In this document: in pieces, positions 13,012-21,958 of the stretch | Layout of the letters: each line of letters starts with the position of its first letter | How positions within the stretch are numbered: position 1 is the first letter of the stretch | From: a virus | Taxonomy: Duplodnaviria > Heunggongvirae > Uroviricota > Caudoviricetes | Virus record (IMG/VR): IMGVR_UViG_2563366972_000005 | Coordinates: 1 to 26,528 of that record | Strand: one strand, 5' to 3' | DNA: 26,528 nt | The notes under the pieces: model-generated | The model's input: only the letters and a program-made list of their open reading frames with translations | Told to the model about the DNA's origin: nothing | Database searches by the model: none | Translations under genes and position numbers: made by a program

Positions 13012-13386
13012 ATGCGTATAGAGTTTGTTTTGCCTTACCCGCCGACGGTGAACACCTACTGGCGTCGTCGTGGCAGTACATATTTTGTATCAAAAGCCGG
13101 TGAGCGTTATCGCCGGGATGTGGCACTTATTGTTCGCCAGCAGCGACTGAAATTAAACCTGTCCGGAAGGCTGGCGATAAAGATTATTGCAGAGCCACCG
13201 GATAAGCGCCGTCGTGACCTGGACAATATTCTGAAAGCTCCACTGGATGCACTGACGCATGCGGGACTACTCATAGACGACGAGCAGTTTGATGAAATTA
13301 ATATTGTGCGCGGTCAGCTCGTTCCAGGTGGGCGGCTGGGCGTGAAGATTTACGAAATAATGCATGACGGGCAGGTCCAAAAATGA
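13012..13386 (+). CDS. rusA: RusA Holliday-junction resolvase (crossover junction endodeoxyribonuclease)
   Basis: 124 aa; YPPTVNTYWRRRG...RRRDLDN...LIDDEQ... parallels E. coli RusA (WPPSNNRYYR...RRRDLDN...WLDDAQ). Confidence 0.9.
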   Translation: MRIEFVLPYPPTVNTYWRRRGSTYFVSKAGERYRRDVALIVRQQRLKLNLSGRLAIKIIAEPPDKRRRDLDNILKAPLDALTHAGLLIDDEQFDEINIVRGQLVPGGRLGVKIYEIMHDGQVQK

Positions 13387-14204
13387 AACTGGAAGATTTA
13401 CCGAAATACTATTCTCCAAAATCGCCAGGCCTGACTGATGCGCCCATCTCGACGTCAAAAGATGCGCTGAGTATCACTGATGTAATGGCTGCGCAGGGTA
13501 TGACACAGAACCGGGCTGAGATGGGATTTTCCGCGTTCCTGGGAAAAATGGGCATTAGTATGAATGACAGGATGCGGGCAACAGAATTACTGGCAGATTA
13601 TGCATTAAGTCGGTGCGATCGCGTCGCGGCGTTAAGGAAACTCCCGGCAGAAATAAAACCGGCAGTGATGCGCATTATGGCTTCGTATGCTTTTGAGGAT
13701 TATGCCCGTAGTGCAGCGAGCAAAAAGCAGTGTCCTTGTTGCCGTGGGGAAAAATTTATTGAAAGCGAAGTTTTTACAAACAAGGTTCTGTATCCGGATG
13801 GTAAGCCGCCAGTATGGGCAAAGTGTACAAAAGGGGTGTATCCGTCTTACTGGGAAGAATGGAAAAAAATCCGGGAGGTGGTGAAAGTTTTCTGTCCTGA
13901 ATGTAAAGGGAAGGGGGAGATTTCGACCGCCTGTAAAGACTGCCGTGGGCGTGGTGTTGCCATTCATCGTGAAGAGTCGGAAAAACGGGGTATGCCTGTA
14001 ATCAGGAACTGCCAGCGTTGTGGCGGTCGGGGCTATGAAAGACTACCATCAACGGAGGCATTTAATGCCATACGCAAAGTGACGAGTGCTATCACGCTTG
14101 ATACGTGGAAAAAATCAGTGAAACGCTTTTACGATACGTTGGTGGTTCGGTTTGACATTGAAGAGGCATGGGCGGAGCGGCAGTTAAAGAGGGTAACGCG
14201 ATAG
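13383..14204 (+). CDS. Late-gene antiterminator Q-like protein with DnaJ-type CxxCxGxG zinc-finger repeats
   Basis: 273 aa; start overlaps rusA stop (ATGA); four CxxC motifs (CPCCRGEKF, CPECKGKGE, CKDCRGRGV, CQRCGGRGY); immediately upstream of a pR'-like promoter and tR'-like terminator. Confidence 0.65.
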   Translation: MKLEDLPKYYSPKSPGLTDAPISTSKDALSITDVMAAQGMTQNRAEMGFSAFLGKMGISMNDRMRATELLADYALSRCDRVAALRKLPAEIKPAVMRIMASYAFEDYARSAASKKQCPCCRGEKFIESEVFTNKVLYPDGKPPVWAKCTKGVYPSYWEEWKKIREVVKVFCPECKGKGEISTACKDCRGRGVAIHREESEKRGMPVIRNCQRCGGRGYERLPSTEAFNAIRKVTSAITLDTWKKSVKRFYDTLVVRFDIEEAWAERQLKRVTR

Positions 14205-15285: not shown

Positions 15286-15361
15286 GGCCCTTTAGCTCAG
15301 TGGTGAGAGCGAGCGACTCATAATCGCCAGGTCGCTGGTTCAAATCCAGCAAGGGCCACCA
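15286..15361 (+). tRNA. tRNA-Ile2 (anticodon CAU, lysidine-type, reads AUA), ileX-like
   Basis: Cloverleaf folded by hand: acceptor GGCCCTT/AAGGGCC, anticodon loop CTCATAA, T-loop TTCAAAT, encoded CCA; near-identical to E. coli tRNA-Ile2. Confidence 0.88.
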
Positions 15362-15362
15362 A

Positions 15363-15439
15363 CCGCCACTAGCTCATCAGGAAAGAGCGTCAACCCTTTA
15401 AGTTGAGAGTGCGAGGTTCGAGTCCCCGGTGGCGGTCCA
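15363..15439 (+). tRNA. Noncanonical tRNA-like gene (anticodon loop CCTTTAA: UUU at 34-36 but C at position 33; A.C mismatch in T-stem)
   Basis: Acceptor CCGCCAC/GTGGCGG, U8, D-arm GCTC/GAGC, T-loop TTCGAGT, encoded CCA; anticodon stem TCAAC/GTTGA. Confidence 0.55.
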
Positions 15440-15441
15440 GT

Positions 15442-15517
<76 letters not shown>

Positions 15518-15520
15518 TAT

Positions 15521-15595
<75 letters not shown>

Positions 15596-16232: not shown

Positions 16233-16314
16233 CCGTCACTAACTCATCGGGTAAGAGTGCATAACGCGTATTGTTGTTTTGTGGTGCGGGGTTCGAGTCC
16301 CCGGTGACGGTCCA
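16233..16314 (+). tRNA. tRNA-like gene / probable pseudo-tRNA, paralogous to the gene at 15363, with expanded noncanonical anticodon region
   Basis: Intact acceptor (CCGTCAC/GTGACGG), D-arm (ACTC/GAGT), T-arm (CGGGG-TTCGAGT-CCCCG) and CCA, but 28 nt between D- and T-stems instead of 23; best anticodon stem ATAAC/GTTGT gives loop GCGTATT. Confidence 0.45.
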
Positions 16315-16683: not shown

Positions 16684-17109
16684 ATGTTTGGTATTTTCAA
16701 AAAGAAAACCCGCAAGGCCATTACTGAAGTGAAGAAAATGGAGAATCGCGATGCGGTGGAGGCAACCGTCTGGGGTGCGTATTCCATTGCATACGCTGAC
16801 GGCACCTGTGACGCGAAAGAAATCGCGGTACTGGAGAAAACCATTGCAGCACTTCCTTCTTTTGCGCCGTTCTCCGGTGAGATTGCCCAGATGAGTGCCA
16901 ATATCCGCGCCCGTTATGAAGCGTCACCGCGTTCTGCCAATGCCGAAGCTCTTCGTCAGCTGGCTGATGTCGCCGGTACTGATGACGCGGTGAATGTGCT
17001 GTGCCTGTGTCTGGATATCGCTGACCAGGACGGCATTGGTCCGGATGAAGAAGCACAGCTCAAGAAAATTGCACAGGCGTTGCAGTTGCCGCTGGAGCAG
17101 TACCTGTGA
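16684..17109 (+). CDS. TerB-like protein (tellurite-resistance TerB family fold)
   Basis: 141 aa; pattern resembles E. coli TerB throughout (N-terminal AVEATVWGAYSIAYADG..., C-terminal DGIGPDEEAQLKKIAQALQLP versus TerB DGNFDDDEKSAVREIARSLGFDP); AAGGAAAAG RBS. Confidence 0.7.
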   Translation: MFGIFKKKTRKAITEVKKMENRDAVEATVWGAYSIAYADGTCDAKEIAVLEKTIAALPSFAPFSGEIAQMSANIRARYEASPRSANAEALRQLADVAGTDDAVNVLCLCLDIADQDGIGPDEEAQLKKIAQALQLPLEQYL

Positions 17110-17258
17110 AAAGTGCGCGCCTTGTGCTGGCTGCCATCCTGCTGTTTCTGGTAGTGGCGGTGGATTTCACCGGACGGCTGATGTCGGTGCTGGCAGATGG
17201 TGTGCTGGTGGCGATGGCGCTGGTTGTGCTCCGACCTTTACTGCGCAAATCTGAATAA
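17106..17258 (+). CDS. Small membrane peptide (50 aa, VKSARLVLAAILLFLVVAVDFTGRLMSVLADGVLVAMALVVLRPLLRKSE); not in the ORF track
   Basis: Hand-translated; GTG start overlaps the TerB-like stop (GTGA); two hydrophobic segments; followed by tandem hairpin terminators. Confidence 0.3.
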   Translation: MKSARLVLAAILLFLVVAVDFTGRLMSVLADGVLVAMALVVLRPLLRKSE

Positions 17259-17310
17259 CACCACACAAAAGGCATCTGCGGGTGCCTTTGACGGGGTGTT
17301 GTTTTTTTAC

Positions 17311-17334
17311 GGGCCGCTGGTGGCCCTTTTTTCT
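17311..17334 (+). terminator. Rho-independent terminator (GGGCC-GCTGGT-GGCCC plus TTTTTTCTTT), preceded by a second hairpin at 17271-17290
   Basis: Read from sequence; separates the TerB-like pair from the lysis cassette. Confidence 0.6.
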
Positions 17335-17350
17335 TTACAGGAGAAAATGT

Positions 17351-17743
17351 ATGTCTGAACCCTTATCCGGTTCTGGTACAGCCGCTGCGCTCGGCGGGGC
17401 GACGGTATTCGGACTGTTTACCGGGACGGATTTCGGGATTGTGTTTGGGGCGTTCGCCGGAGCGTTGTTTGTGGCAACGATGCCGCAGGCGCTTTCAGCC
17501 TGGCGGGTGGCGGCACATTTTCTGGTGTCGTTCATTGTCGGCGTGCTGGGAGCGCGCGTGCTGTCAGCCTGGATTGCAGCAAAAACAGGTTATGACGGTA
17601 CATCGGCGGATGCACTGTGTGCGGTGCTGGTATCGGTGGTGTCGGTAAAGATTCTGTCGTTTATCCACCAACAGGATATCGCATCACTGGTGTCCGGCCT
17701 GTTCTCCCGCTTGCGTGGCGGAGGAGGCGGCAATGTTAAGTAA
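17351..17743 (+). CDS. Holin-like membrane protein
   Basis: 130 aa from ATG 17351 (AGGAG 7 nt upstream); Gly/Ala-rich TM helices (GATVFGLFTGTDFGIVFGAFAGALFVA...); first gene of the lysis cassette. Confidence 0.65.
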   Translation: MSEPLSGSGTAAALGGATVFGLFTGTDFGIVFGAFAGALFVATMPQALSAWRVAAHFLVSFIVGVLGARVLSAWIAAKTGYDGTSADALCAVLVSVVSVKILSFIHQQDIASLVSGLFSRLRGGGGGNVK

Positions 17744-18008
17744 CCTTCCCGGATTGCTGAATGTGGCGTTATGCACGGTTATCGTGCTGACGCTCTTTTT
17801 TTATCGCCGTCGTGATTCCAGACATAAACCGCTGATGTCATGGCTGGCCTGGCTGTTGATGTTGCTTTATGCCTTAACGCCTCTCAGCTATCTGTGTGGT
17901 CGCCCGTTAGCAACGGGCTGGCTGGAAGTGTTTTTTAATCTGTTGTTCTGCGTGCTGGTAATACGTGCTCGCGGGAACGTTTCAAAAATCCTTTCATCCC
18001 GGAGGTGA
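17733..18008 (+). CDS. Second lysis-cassette membrane protein (holin/antiholin-like)
   Basis: 91 aa from ATG 17733 (GGAGG upstream); 2-3 hydrophobic helices; lies between holin and endolysin. Confidence 0.55.
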   Translation: MLSNLPGLLNVALCTVIVLTLFFYRRRDSRHKPLMSWLAWLLMLLYALTPLSYLCGRPLATGWLEVFFNLLFCVLVIRARGNVSKILSSRR

Positions 18009-18010
18009 AC

Positions 18011-18388
18011 ATGTCGGGTAAATTCAGATTCAGTCGTCGGAGCGAGAAAAATCTGGAGGGCGTCAAACCACAACTGGTTGCCGTGGTTCGCCGTGCGCTG
18101 GAACTGACGGAGGTTGATTTCGGTATTACGGAAGGCCTGCGCAGTAAGTATCGCCAGAAACAGCTGGTCGCGGAAGGGAAAAGCCAGACCATGAACAGCC
18201 GCCACCTGACCGGTGATGCGGTGGATGTTGTGGCCTACATTGGTAGCCAGGTGTCATGGGACTGGCCTCTGTACGAGAAAATCGCGCAGGCATTTAAGCA
18301 GGCTGCCGCAGAGCTGGGGACTGCCATCGAATGGGGCGGGGACTGGAAAACACTGAAAGACGGACCTCACTTTCAGTTGAAACGCTGA
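18011..18388 (+). CDS. Endolysin, peptidase M15 family (L-alanyl-D-glutamate / D-Ala-D-Ala peptidase fold)
   Basis: 125 aa from ATG 18011 (GGAGGTGA upstream); motifs GITEGLRS...Q...G.S...SRHLTGDAVDV and WGGDW are typical of M15 peptidase endolysins. Confidence 0.82.
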   Translation: MSGKFRFSRRSEKNLEGVKPQLVAVVRRALELTEVDFGITEGLRSKYRQKQLVAEGKSQTMNSRHLTGDAVDVVAYIGSQVSWDWPLYEKIAQAFKQAAAELGTAIEWGGDWKTLKDGPHFQLKR

Positions 18389-18402
18389 TAACCAGGTGTG
18401 TT

Positions 18403-18585
18403 ATGAGCAGAAAACACTGGACACACAGAATGCCGCGAACGGCGGCGAAATGGGCACTGGTAGCGATACTGGTGCCTTTTTTATTGGTGGGATGCGTCAG
18501 CCTGGATAAGGCGAGCCGGCTTTTCGATACCGCGTCTCAGGTCTGCCAGCTTATTGATGACGTTCGACGGTGTACGCAGAACTGA
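18403..18585 (+). CDS. Small lipoprotein (lipobox LLVGC), possibly lysis-associated
   Basis: 60 aa from ATG 18403 (AGGTG upstream); signal peptide plus lipobox; sits where Rz/Rz1 would be expected but lacks a proline-rich Rz1-like mature region. Confidence 0.5.
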   Translation: MSRKHWTHRMPRTAAKWALVAILVPFLLVGCVSLDKASRLFDTASQVCQLIDDVRRCTQN

Positions 18586-18759
18586 TCGCCGGTAAGAGCA
18601 GAACATTTTTCTGAAAAATGAAGGGTGTGCCTGCGTGTAGAAAGCATGAAATTCTGTGTTTATGGTTATTCAATAAAATAAATTCTTTCTTTCGCCGCGA
18701 ATACTCAAATGTTGATCAGCGCCTGGTGCGGCGACGGGCTTCGATATCAGGAGACGATG

Positions 18760-19056
18760 ATGGAAAAAACAGAAAACAAACCGATTGTAATTGGTGCTGA
18801 TGCTGCTCCGTTTAAGTTTGAGTTGTCTCAACTGGTGGAGATGCGCATCAGTGATGAATGGGGTGAGGTTAAAGCCCGCGCGCAGTATGCGGATGGCGAA
18901 AACCAGTACTTAATCCACTACAAAGCAGCTGATGGTCGCGCCACGACAGAGTGGTTTGGTGAGTCAATGCTGGAAGCAACAGAAGATGATCGCCATCCGG
19001 GCTGTCCGGTATTTGCCGGTATGAAATTACCGGAAGGCGCAGTCGTGACTGAATAA
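18760..19056 (+). CDS. Hypothetical acidic protein
   Basis: 98 aa from ATG 18760 (AGGAGA 5 nt upstream). Confidence 0.5.
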   Translation: MEKTENKPIVIGADAAPFKFELSQLVEMRISDEWGEVKARAQYADGENQYLIHYKAADGRATTEWFGESMLEATEDDRHPGCPVFAGMKLPEGAVVTE

Positions 19057-19149
19057 CAGGTATTACAGCAGTTCTTCGGTGATGGGCTGCTGTAATGCAG
19101 GTGTTAGAGTGTGTGTAAATGATGATTGCTCCCATTTTCACGGGTCCTT

Positions 19150-19841: not shown

Positions 19842-21958
19842 TGCCTGTGCAGGCGACCGCCAGATCGTTGAAACTGGATACAGGCCAGTTAATTAAAGCG
19901 CCGCGCAGAATGCCTGTTGCCGAAGCGGTACAAAAATTTATGCGAGTCCCTACATCTGGTGGCAACTCTGTTCCGTGGGATCCGATGGTTGCGCCGTATG
20001 TGATTGACCCCATGAACTGCCTGTCGTCCCGTGAGTTTGATGCGGTTGTTTTTGTTGGCCCTGCCCGTACGGGTAAGACTAACGGCCTGATTGATGGCTG
20101 GGTGGTTTATAACATTGTCTGCGATCCGTCGGACTTTTTGCTGGTGCAGATGACGCAGGATAAGGCGCAGGAGCACTCCAAAAAGCGCCTGGCAAGAACA
20201 TTTCGTTGCAGCCCGGAGGTCAGAAAACGCCTCAGCCCACGCCGTAACGATAACAACGTTCATGACAAATATTTTCTGTCAGGCAGCTTCCTGAAAATCG
20301 GCTGGCCTTCCATCAATGTCATGTCATCCTCTGATTTTAAATGTGTTGCGCTGACTGATTACGACCGATTTCCTGAAGATATCAATGGCGAAGGTGATGG
20401 TTTCTCTCTGGCTTCAAAACGTACCACCACATTTATGTCAGCTGGTATGACGCTGGTGGAGAGTTCCCCTGGGCGTGAGATCACAAACAGCAAATGGCGC
20501 AGAACGTCACCGCATGAAGCCCCGCCCACCACGGGGATCCTTTCTCTGTATAACCGTGGCGATCGTCGTCGCTGGTACTGGCCCTGTCCTGATTGTGGTG
20601 ATTATTTTCAGCCATCAATGGAGGCTATGACGGGATATCGTGACAATCCTGATCCTGTAAAAGCCAGTGAATCGGCTCATATATTGTGTCCGCATTGTGG
20701 CAGTCAAATCACTGCAGATATGAAACGTGAACTGAATGGTCGCGGCGTCTGGTTGCGTGAAGGTGAGCAGATTGACAGAGAAGGGAATGTTACCGGAACG
20801 CCACGTCATTCAAGGATAGCCAGCTTCTGGATGGAAGGGCCGGCTGCTGCGTATCAGACCTGGGCGCAACTGGTTTACAAACTACTGACTGCTGAGCAGG
20901 AATATGAAGCCACAGGCAGTGAGGAAACGCTGAAGGCGGTGATTAACACCGACTGGGGATTACCTTATTTGCCTCGTTCCGCAATGGAGTTGCGCAGTGC
21001 AGATGTTCTGATGCAGCGGGCTGAGGATTACGGTAAGCGTCTGGTACCGCCGAAAGTGCGTTTTCTTATTGCGGCGGTGGACGTGCAGGGCGGGAAGAAC
21101 CGACGGTTTGTGGTGCAGATTATTGGTTATGGCGAGGACGGTGAACGCTGGCTGGTGGACCGTTATAACATCCGACAGTCATTGCGCTGCGATGAAAATG
21201 GCGAAGCATTACCTGTGCATCCCGGGGCTTATCCTGAAGACTGGCAGTTGCTGGTCACCGATGTACTGGAGAAAACGTATCCGCTCCAGTCCGATCCGGC
21301 CCGCAGAATGCCTGTACTGGCAATGGCGGTGGACAGTGGTGGTGAAGACGGGGTGACGGATAACGCCTATAAATTCTGGCGAAAATGTCGTCAGGATGGA
21401 CTGGGGCGACGGGTTTTTCTGGTAAAGGGAGACAGCACGAAACGCCAGAAAATTATCACCATCACACACCCGGATAATACCGGGCGAAGCGATCGCCGTG
21501 CGGATGCTCAGGGAAAGGTGCCGGTATATCTCCTGCAGACAGACCTGCTGAAAGATCAACTAAGCAATAACCTGCAACGTGAAATGCCCGGACCGGGCTA
21601 CATTCATTTTCCTGACTGGCTCGGGGAGTGGTTTTATGAAGAGTTGACCTATGAGGAACGCGGTGCTGACGGGAAATGGCGCAAGCCGGGAAAAGGGAAT
21701 AACGAAGCGTTTGACCTTTTTTGCTATGCCCATGCCGTCGCCATTCTGCGTGGCTATGAAAAAATCCGTGACTGGAGCAACCCTCCCCAGTGGGCAAGAG
21801 GGCAGGATGCTGACGCGGGTGCTTCGGCAGACAGACGTTCTTCCGGCACAGTGGACAAGAAAAACGTTGCCGGAAGAGATGAGCGGCAAAAAGCAGCGTC
21901 GCCGGAAGCGTTATCCGGAAACTGGTTATCACTACCCCGAAACGGAGGATGGTTGTGA
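19841..21958 (+). CDS. Terminase large subunit, lambda gpA-like
   Basis: 705 aa; Walker A-like VGPARTGKT; size and position match lambda A. Confidence 0.88.
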   Translation: MPVQATARSLKLDTGQLIKAPRRMPVAEAVQKFMRVPTSGGNSVPWDPMVAPYVIDPMNCLSSREFDAVVFVGPARTGKTNGLIDGWVVYNIVCDPSDFLLVQMTQDKAQEHSKKRLARTFRCSPEVRKRLSPRRNDNNVHDKYFLSGSFLKIGWPSINVMSSSDFKCVALTDYDRFPEDINGEGDGFSLASKRTTTFMSAGMTLVESSPGREITNSKWRRTSPHEAPPTTGILSLYNRGDRRRWYWPCPDCGDYFQPSMEAMTGYRDNPDPVKASESAHILCPHCGSQITADMKRELNGRGVWLREGEQIDREGNVTGTPRHSRIASFWMEGPAAAYQTWAQLVYKLLTAEQEYEATGSEETLKAVINTDWGLPYLPRSAMELRSADVLMQRAEDYGKRLVPPKVRFLIAAVDVQGGKNRRFVVQIIGYGEDGERWLVDRYNIRQSLRCDENGEALPVHPGAYPEDWQLLVTDVLEKTYPLQSDPARRMPVLAMAVDSGGEDGVTDNAYKFWRKCRQDGLGRRVFLVKGDSTKRQKIITITHPDNTGRSDRRADAQGKVPVYLLQTDLLKDQLSNNLQREMPGPGYIHFPDWLGEWFYEELTYEERGADGKWRKPGKGNNEAFDLFCYAHAVAILRGYEKIRDWSNPPQWARGQDADAGASADRRSSGTVDKKNVAGRDERQKAASPEALSGNWLSLPRNGGWL

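Follow-up and report, generated by a model that had tools for sequence, protein, structure and literature searches.

This analysis concerns the last gene of the lysis cassette of a lambda-like prophage, which codes for a 60-aa prolipoprotein and stands where an Rz/Rz1 spanin pair might be looked for. The cassette occupies positions 17351-18585 of a 26.5-kb stretch of DNA (26,528 nucleotides; IMG/VR virus record IMGVR_UViG_2563366972_000005, Caudoviricetes), called the window below, which holds the late region whole, from Q through the terminase and portal genes. According to the open reading frame (ORF) map and the sequence, the four genes of the cassette all lie on the + strand and are closely packed:

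17351-17743, + strand: holin-like membrane protein, 130 aa, 3-4 predicted transmembrane (TM) segments (Phage_holin_8 PF16931, E 4e-23; phrog_198 holin, E 4e-42)
17733-18008, + strand: second membrane protein, 91 aa, 3 TM segments (Phage_holin_3_7 PF05449, E 1.6e-21; phrog_217 holin, E 1.9e-38)
18011-18388, + strand: endolysin, 125 aa, M15 metallopeptidase of the L-alanyl-D-glutamate peptidase type (Peptidase_M15_4, E 1.5e-12; phrog_465 endolysin, E 5.6e-75)
18394-18398, + strand: Shine-Dalgarno-like AGGTG, read from the sequence, 4 nt 5' of the lipoprotein ATG
18403-18585, + strand: 60-aa prolipoprotein gene (phrog_7528, unknown function, E 5e-34)

The 130-aa Phage_holin_8 protein is 87-89% identical to L28 of phage phiP27 and to the products of other phage 'holin' genes, and the start of the 91-aa holin_3_7 gene overlaps the stop of the Phage_holin_8 gene. 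In E. coli genomes the 125-aa endolysin is named 'M15 family metallopeptidase' by PGAP. A sequence-only reading of this DNA had placed a holin-like gene and a second membrane protein gene ahead of an M15 endolysin, and the Pfam and PHROG matches bore it out. The endolysin stop and the lipoprotein start are separated by 14 nt, which contain the Shine-Dalgarno-like AGGTG, and the promoter scan predicted no sigma-70-like promoter between the two genes. The G+C content of the lipoprotein gene (0.545) equals that of the lysis genes, and a drop comes only 3' of it.

The prolipoprotein is composed of the signal peptide MSRKHWTHRMPRTAAKWALVAILVPFLLVG and the mature part CVSLDKASRLFDTASQVCQLIDDVRRCTQN. 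The signal peptide (codons 18403-18492) has a long basic n-region, SRKHWTHRxPRxxxKW, followed by a hydrophobic core and the lipobox LVGC. The mature part (codons 18493-18582) starts with the lipidated Cys31 (codon 18493-18495), is 30 aa long and proline-free, and carries cysteines at +1, +18 and +27 (Cys31, Cys48 and Cys57), in agreement with the earlier description of a single small lipoprotein with an LVGC lipobox, cysteines and no proline-rich region. The lipobox L-V-G-C is invariant in the family, and the +2 residue is V, A, T, S or G, never Asp in the main group; because Asp is not found at +2, sorting to the outer membrane (OM) is expected under the E. coli Lol sorting rule. Since residues 1-9 are conserved and M10 is not kept in the homologues, where T, I, Q or V replaces it, M1 is taken as the true start. 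Among 56 distinct DNA variants the ratio of nonsynonymous to synonymous divergence (dN/dS) was 0.14 in the n-region, 0.19 in the h-region and 0.19 in the mature part, and synonymous divergence (pS) reached 0.27-0.28 in the n-region and the mature part. The lipoprotein ORF is a real gene under purifying selection and no chance ORF.

Two sub-branches of the family were distinguished (...DKARQLFDTASQVCxIVDGVRQC... and ...EKARNWFGVAADVCDTVxKIKDRC...), which have in common the lipobox, C31, C48, C57/58 and the amphipathic pattern. The mature peptide is moderately amphipathic (hydrophobic moment, muH, 0.5-0.6; mean Eisenberg hydrophobicity of the 29 C-terminal residues -0.19), and its net charge, 0 in the copy of the window, ranges from about -2 to +3 in the family. 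In the Jpred table of Kongari et al. 2018 (PMC6139136), 25 of the 30 mature residues are predicted to be helical, and the peptide is predicted to be amphipathic, helix-prone and disulfide-capable. Neither Pfam nor NCBIfam gave a match to the lipoprotein at E<=1, and nothing informative was met among the PDB sequences; a known non-lysis family, one of the outcomes foreseen in the sequence-only reading, was thus not encountered. A Tat signal was ruled out, the twin arginine (PRRGAK) occurring in one sub-branch only. The alternative-frame ORF 18396-18509 (phiP27 'L32') was considered as a relic of an Rz frame, and BLASTP against SfII Rz produced no alignment; this frame is judged not to be coding because synonymous divergence of the n-region is ordinary in the lipoprotein frame. 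The n-region motif (18406-18453 in the window; 1995-2045 in Shigella phage SfII, locus L088) is constrained at the protein level though no Rz frame overlaps the lipoprotein gene. This conserved n-region is basic and His/Trp-rich and belongs to a cleaved signal peptide.

Spanin-specific searches and a search for an embedded +1 frame ORF, both proposed with the sequence-only reading, returned neither a canonical pair nearby nor an embedded ORF. The ORF scan of the window contained no embedded or overlapping +1 lipoprotein ORF, no second lipobox ORF and no type-II membrane protein ORF. No Rz or Rz1 of the lambda, GER2 or SfII type was detected by tblastn in the 26.5 kb, the sole match being the signal peptide of SfII Rz1, which fell on the lipoprotein itself, and no unimolecular spanin (u-spanin) was found anywhere in the window. 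The earlier statement that a nested Rz/Rz1 pair is missing was thereby confirmed. As the window spans the entire late region from Q to the terminase and portal genes, the spanin pair is absent and not displaced.

The scan for lipobox ORFs and type-II membrane ORFs was extended to 108 distinct lipoprotein loci, and in none of them (0/108) was an inner-membrane spanin (i-spanin) or a convincing Rz/Rz1-like pair present. Among the controls, Rz and Rz1 were recovered in phage GER2 and Rz in SfII, and SfII Rz1 escaped the lipobox rule on account of its L-N-G-C box. In E. coli SE11, whose complete lambda-like prophage was followed from int to J (lipoprotein gene at NC_011415 1766155-1766337), no LysB/LysC is annotated. 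Rz was present in 277 of the 279 Shiga toxin (Stx) phages surveyed by Pinto et al. 2021 (PMC8136144), and the two without it have phiP27-type M15 cassettes. Phage GER2 has the S and R genes, a small TM protein and Rz/Rz1, and further 3' a copy of the lipoprotein gene that contains three or more in-frame stops. In Salmonella phage 118970_sal3, which lacks the lipoprotein, a holin_8-type holin is accompanied by an Rz spanin. One small TM protein (phrog_4493/1115) is found just ahead of Rz in GER2 and ahead of the lipoprotein in cassettes with a GH108 endolysin, hence the lipoprotein and Rz are positional equivalents. Judging from gene content, the presence of the lipoprotein appears to be complementary to that of Rz/Rz1. 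The literature on lone or orphan outer-membrane spanins (o-spanins) and on spanin-less lambdoid phages held nothing that we could find about this lipoprotein family.

The genomic context was analyzed in about 160 loci, and the counts were taken from 95 distinct loci with at least 2.3 kb of upstream sequence. The lipoprotein gene lies 3' of an endolysin gene in 95 of the 95, the endolysin being of the M15 class in 71, of the GH108 type in 23 and CHAP-like in one. The holin_8 and holin_3_7 pair was present in 87 loci and an unrelated phrog_126-type holin in five; no holin was found in three, one of which has a Mu-like insertion in the endolysin (locus L039, 1246-3252). The lipoprotein start is at most 25 nt from the endolysin stop, or overlaps it, in 59/95 loci. 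The downstream genes and the terminase types vary among phiP27, pPE4, the Stx2k phages and the window, and as they differ while an endolysin is always found upstream, the linkage is to the lysis module. The lipoprotein gene is always the last of the lysis cassette, whether the endolysin belongs to one or another of three unrelated types, and with two or more holin systems.

The signal peptide connects the protein to the LysC/Rz1 family of o-spanins (PF23793). Comparison of the two family alignments with hhalign gave a probability of 97% (E 6.5e-11) over 34 columns, which include the motif (S/K)HW(S/T)HRxPRxxxKW. The lipoprotein matched SfII-type Rz1 at E 0.05 in tblastn against phages and at 3e-9 in pairwise BLASTP, and SfII Rz1 matched phrog_7528 at 1.3e-3. 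No Pfam match to PF23793 or PF06085 was obtained at E<=1, and phrog_1275 ('Rz-like spanin') reached E 0.13 only. In LysC genes the n-region overlaps Rz, whereas in the window family there is no overlap and the motif is still constrained as protein. On these alignments the signal peptide, and not the mature part, is homologous to that of LysC/Rz1-type o-spanins.

The phiP27 orthologue had already been listed, independently, as an o-spanin by Kongari et al. 2018 (PMC6139136). In their catalogue phiP27 has a two-component spanin of the 'separated' kind, which at 62 residues has the shortest periplasmic length of the set and is made up of an i-spanin (20348-20542) and an o-spanin (20706-20861). 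The latter, read from Met10, corresponds to the window lipoprotein as its orthologue. The sequence-only reading, which saw no recognisable Rz/Rz1 spanins, needs correcting in that the lipoprotein itself can in part be recognised as a spanin, given the homologous signal peptide and this catalogued orthologue. The i-spanin is a TTG-initiated ORF of 64 codons, antisense to a more plausible 90-aa ORF (L001 4339-4533, equal to NC_003356 20348-20542). It lies within an insert of ~470 bp that only phiP27 has, and was found in 1 of 158 related loci and not in the window. Because the i-spanin ORF is not conserved and belongs to a phiP27-only insert, its pairing with the o-spanin is unsupported, which leaves the lipoprotein on its own. 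Two annotated ORFs of phiP27 likewise seem to be spurious: L31 is a frame extending into the insert, and L32 lies out of frame over the unannotated lipoprotein gene.

A further feature was detected by the terminator scan inside the signal-peptide codons:

18452-18487, + strand: intrinsic-terminator-like RNA hairpin including its T-run; 11-bp stem and 4-nt loop at 18452-18477, then TTTTTTATT

The hairpin lies in the codons for residues W17-L28, with a folding energy of -21.7 kcal/mol (z -4.05). Its stem is nearly invariant at synonymous sites (27-44 distinct variants), even in homologues only 56-63% identical at the protein level; the loop varies freely, and the changes in the stem are transitions that keep the pairing via G-U. 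Accordingly, pS is 0.10 in the hairpin segment vs 0.27-0.28 on both flanks. In a formal covariation test 98% of cells were paired and all but a few one-sided changes could pair, and the comparison with shuffles was not significant (88/500), variation being too low; the case for the hairpin rests on the conservation of synonymous sites and not on covariation. The GER2 pseudogene still contains the hairpin, a second copy forms the 3' end of a PerC-like moron in locus L047 (5792-5825), and the SfII Rz1 gene, though related, lacks it. The hairpin in its codons accounts for the apparently higher conservation of the signal peptide relative to the mature part. These features suggest a terminator or RNA element at the border between lysis and packaging genes. 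If the hairpin terminates unmodified RNA polymerase, the lipoprotein would be made only under Q antitermination, i.e., late.

We read the 60-aa gene, with a probability of roughly 55%, as one for an o-spanin-derived OM lipoprotein of the late lysis operon, which would have taken the place and most likely the job of Rz/Rz1 with no cognate i-spanin. The atypical OM disruption factor suggested by the sequence-only reading finds support in the comparative context (the end of the cassette, three endolysin classes, never with an i-spanin, decayed beside Rz/Rz1), from which we infer OM localisation, late co-expression, the OM-disrupting activity itself and its mechanism. Late transcription antiterminated by Q would read the two holin genes, the endolysin gene and the lipoprotein gene as a single unit. 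The precursor would be exported and lipidated at Cys31 via Lgt/LspA/Lnt and, without an Asp+2 retention signal, be carried by Lol to the inner leaflet of the OM, where it would wait as a 30-residue amphipathic, helix-prone and disulfide-capable peptide. After release of the endolysin by the holins and destruction of the murein, the lipoprotein could destabilise the OM or fuse it with the turgor-pressed inner membrane (IM), and no phage-encoded IM partner would be needed for OM disruption. In evolutionary terms, the signal peptide would derive from an o-spanin of the LysC/Rz1 type whose Rz partner and long, proline-rich domain in the periplasm were lost or replaced. Since the mature peptide is roughly neutral and 30 residues long, it would be neither a cationic disruptin nor a periplasm-bridging protein. 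An alternative mechanism would be a route like that of the bacteriocin release proteins (BRPs), with outer membrane phospholipase A (OMPLA) and an active signal peptide. A bolder version, possible and put forward tentatively, would make the mature lipopeptide a self-sufficient third OM-disruption factor beside spanins and disruptin, a 'mini-spanin' with one anchor on the OM, inert under intact murein, rupturing or fusing the membranes when the action of the endolysin brings the IM up against it, and derived from an Rz1-type o-spanin by shedding Rz, its gene being dual-coding with a conserved intrinsic terminator or RNA element of the lysis/packaging border in the signal-peptide codons.

Several points weigh against this o-spanin-derived, partner-less lipoprotein. 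The combination of Rz/Rz1 with a decayed lipoprotein gene belongs to a single lineage, seen in 43 E. coli genomes at 99% identity or more; further independent cases were sought and none was found. The mature domain has no significant similarity to any spanin (hhalign E 0.36 with LysC/Rz1), and its homology to the LysC/Rz1 C-terminal helix (SLDLNVSLLSALASC vs SLDKASRLFDTASQVC in the hhalign register) was rejected at this E value; nor was any similarity of the mature domain found to Pfam, NCBIfam or PDB entries. The AlphaFold2 (AF2) model, built on a 16-sequence alignment, is one long helix of low confidence (pLDDT about 60-66). The lysis role of the family would be a case of guilt by association, and with its 30 residues the mature domain is too short to span the periplasm while this is intact. 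In lambda, Rz1 has no activity in the absence of Rz, so a partner-less mechanism would be without precedent among o-spanins. Spanins are dispensable in laboratory shaking without divalent cations, and a truly spanin-less phage is therefore conceivable. In 36 of the 95 loci small TM proteins (phrog_4493/1115, phrog_4906) or morons (KilA-N, an antisense ORF) intervene between the endolysin and the lipoprotein. Finally, the LT-II enterotoxin prophages Rac-SA53 and SerU-LTIIb have the same holins and a GH108 endolysin and have lost the lipoprotein with no Rz gained, which may make it dispensable, in prophages that are possibly defective at any rate.

The lipoprotein might also be half of a two-component spanin whose IM partner has gone unrecognised, which we consider distinctly unlikely. 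Either 'holin', the 57-aa phrog_4493/1115 protein, the 44-aa phrog_4906 protein, the uncleaved precursor of the lipoprotein, held in the IM by its unusually conserved signal peptide, or Rz from a co-resident prophage could be that partner. The classification of phiP27 by Kongari et al. 2018 (PMC6139136) favours such a pair, yet the i-spanin proposed there is the TTG-started ORF, antisense to a better 90-aa ORF and found in 1/158 loci. Small TM proteins abut the lipoprotein gene in 29/95 loci, but the 57-aa and 44-aa proteins are absent from the window and from the 59 loci of the adjacent type, and no one membrane protein occurs in all architectures. The holins differ too (holin_8 with holin_3_7 vs the phrog_126 type). 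Because a homologue of the 57-aa protein also precedes a complete Rz/Rz1 in GER2, this small TM protein is no Rz substitute. A partner is further suggested by the homology of the signal peptide to genuine o-spanins and by the constraint on the n-region (dN/dS 0.14, pS 0.27), unusual for a merely cleaved sequence. The Rz region was matched in 3160 of 5426 E. coli genomes, so that most carry other Rz prophages. A pair of 30 + 30 residues, however, would be by far the shortest spanin.

Unlikely as well, though less so, is an accessory OM lipoprotein of moron or late type without a role in lysis, acting in masking or exclusion like Llp/Cor or in serum resistance like Bor, in phages that would simply have no OM disruption factor. 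Morons are classically found at the border between lysis and packaging genes: bor is located there in lambda, and KilA-N, PerC-like and LT-II toxin morons are inserted around the lipoprotein gene. Small disulfide-bearing OM lipoproteins such as T5 Llp block receptors, and the LT-II prophages lost the gene without an obvious replacement. The conversion lipoprotein of the Bor type raised in the sequence-only reading found no support, since no Bor, Cor or other Pfam or NCBIfam match was obtained and the gene shares the strand and G+C content of the lysis genes, follows the endolysin after 14 nt and has no predicted promoter, while its internal terminator-like hairpin argues against expression by read-through in the lysogen. 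The linkage is moreover to lysis modules, across unrelated terminase and structural modules, and not to tail or receptor-binding ones, and the gene is decayed in the sole lineage that acquired Rz/Rz1. It is highly improbable that the gene is a vestigial o-spanin without protein function, kept for a DNA or RNA element such as a border hairpin or a recombination linker. The hairpin with its T-run is the most conserved part of the gene, synonymous sites included, survives in the GER2 pseudogene and has been duplicated behind the PerC-like moron in L047. Purifying selection nevertheless acts outside the hairpin (dN/dS 0.19 in the mature part and 0.14 in the n-region at pS 0.27-0.28), and the ORF, lipobox and Cys pattern are intact in the 108 distinct loci and in both sub-branches.

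Comparison with the known systems helped to place the lipoprotein. Like the LysC/Rz1 o-spanins (PF23793; Rz1 of Shigella phages SfII/SfV, P2 LysC-like proteins), it is a lipoprotein with a signal peptidase II (SPII) signal at the 3' end of a lysis cassette, with a homologous signal peptide bearing the n-region motif, periplasmic cysteine(s) and predicted OM sorting. Unlike them, it has no overlapping, embedding or adjoining Rz/i-spanin gene, and its mature part is 30 aa long vs about 70 aa and lacks a proline-rich stretch. Of the marks of an o-spanin, the lipobox without an IM retention signal and the cassette position 3' of the endolysin are present, and the cognate i-spanin is missing. The unimolecular spanin of phage T1, gp11, is likewise a lone gene closing the lysis cassette in place of Rz/Rz1, with an N-terminal lipobox; gp11, however, has a C-terminal IM TM domain and an envelope-bridging periplasmic domain, whereas the window lipoprotein ends 29 residues past the lipidated Cys, is hydrophilic/amphipathic and has no TM domain, which sets it apart from u-spanins.

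Disruptin is not known to be a lipoprotein. The window lipoprotein differs from it in the SPII signal peptide, the charge of 0 (-2 to +3 in the family) and the conserved cysteines, and cannot be counted as a disruptin. According to its title, the report on this protein, gp28 of phage phiKT (bioRxiv 10.1101/515445), deals with a cationic antimicrobial peptide; the two are alike in being small amphipathic helix-prone peptides, disruptin standing in for spanins in a spanin-less coliphage as the lipoprotein would in the window. Colicin lysis proteins/BRPs (PF02402) and entericidin B are also tiny lipoproteins with a mature part of ~25-35 aa and a lipobox of the LVGC/LVAC type, envelope permeabilisation being known on the BRP/entericidin side. 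The BRP signal peptide is itself stable and active, and by analogy such an active peptide would fit the conserved signal peptide of the window lipoprotein. The PF02402 proteins differ in that they gave no sequence match at E<=1, the window context is a prophage lysis cassette and not a colicin operon, and the mature part of the lipoprotein has cysteines. The Bor/Cor/Llp lipoproteins, finally, showed no family match, and the linkage to lysis rather than tail genes and the lack of a predicted promoter of its own place the window lipoprotein outside that group.

The surroundings of the cassette in the window comprise the following features:

13383-14204: Q gene, marking the 5' limit of the late region in the window
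15286-15595 and 16233-16314: five tRNA genes (Met, Lys, Thr, Gly, Val), between Q and the holin
16684-17258: TerB-like and DUF3927 (TciB-like) moron, from Pfam/PHROG matches, between Q and the holin
17311-17335, + strand: terminator-like hairpin with a T-run, just 5' of the holin start (terminator scan)

The hairpin at 17311-17335 is probably the end of the TerB/DUF3927 moron. The stretch with the tRNA and TerB/DUF3927 genes corresponds to the slot of the stx genes in phiP27 and the Stx2k phages. For the cassette region 17300-19100 the closest E. coli match was just 93.7% identical, and the exact lipoprotein sequence of the window was not among 5.8 billion clustered proteins, the closest being at 93%. 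To judge from these identities, the window may stem from a host among the enterobacteria, or from a prophage lineage, that has been sampled less.

Small tail-anchored or single-TM proteins (57/60 aa, phrog_4493/1115; 44 aa, phrog_4906) lie directly 5' of the lipoprotein gene in GH108 cassettes (L038 4826-4999; L060 4662-4844 and 4862-4996) and, before Rz, in GER2 (L089 2630-2782). They do not occur in the window and may be unrecognised lysis accessory proteins. The endolysin-lipoprotein junction and the stretch just 3' of the lipoprotein form a cargo hotspot, where KilA-N genes (pPE4, Salmonella), a PerC-like regulator and the LT-IIa/LT-IIb enterotoxin operons (Rac-SA53, SerU-LTIIb) were found. 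Cargo and insertions are at L002 4333-4896, L004 5444-6004, L047 5480-5760, L159 4798-5938, L087 5077-6226 and L039 1246-3252.

Matches to the 1.8-kb cassette were found in 440 of 5426 complete E. coli genomes (~8%), in which PGAP calls the lipoprotein a 'hypothetical protein', as well as in phages phiP27 (Stx2e), phiSTEC1575-Stx2k and vB_Apl-pPE4. Protein searches returned 151 clusters at 90% identity, all enterobacterial (Escherichia, Citrobacter, Salmonella, Cronobacter, Yersinia, Lelliottia) and without any functional name; 25 representatives only were present among 1.84 billion 50%-clusters. A search of genome contigs with the lipoprotein gave at least three loci. An alignment of the divergent members proved too variable for pattern scanning. 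The lipoprotein is confined to enterobacterial prophages. 'Actinobacillus phage vB_Apl-pPE4' (PP818812.1) shares ~89% nucleotide identity with E. coli prophages across the whole cassette, and its TerB and endolysin proteins are 99% identical to those of E. coli prophages, which is surprising for a Pasteurellaceae phage; its host attribution may deserve a check.

Disruption of the OM is the least understood step of phage lysis, the known factors being the two-component and unimolecular spanins and one cationic peptide, disruptin. For ~13% of phages of Gram-negative hosts, no OM disruption factor was identified by Kongari et al. 2018 (PMC6139136). What these comparisons would add is a putative o-spanin lineage without an i-spanin, common in E. 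coli prophages. They also call for a correction of the literature, since the phiP27 'i-spanin' and the 'shortest spanin pair' resting on it are unsupported. The lipoprotein cassette is common (~8% of complete E. coli genomes), occurs also in Stx2e/2k phages and has a host that lends itself to genetic work. Should the lipoprotein break the OM by itself, an o-spanin lineage would be able to dispense with its IM partner, which would challenge bridging as the only spanin mechanism and would offer a 30-residue minimal tool for controlled OM permeabilisation. It would also bear on toxin release by Stx2e phages and possibly on the LT-II prophages, which have the same holins and have lost the lipoprotein.

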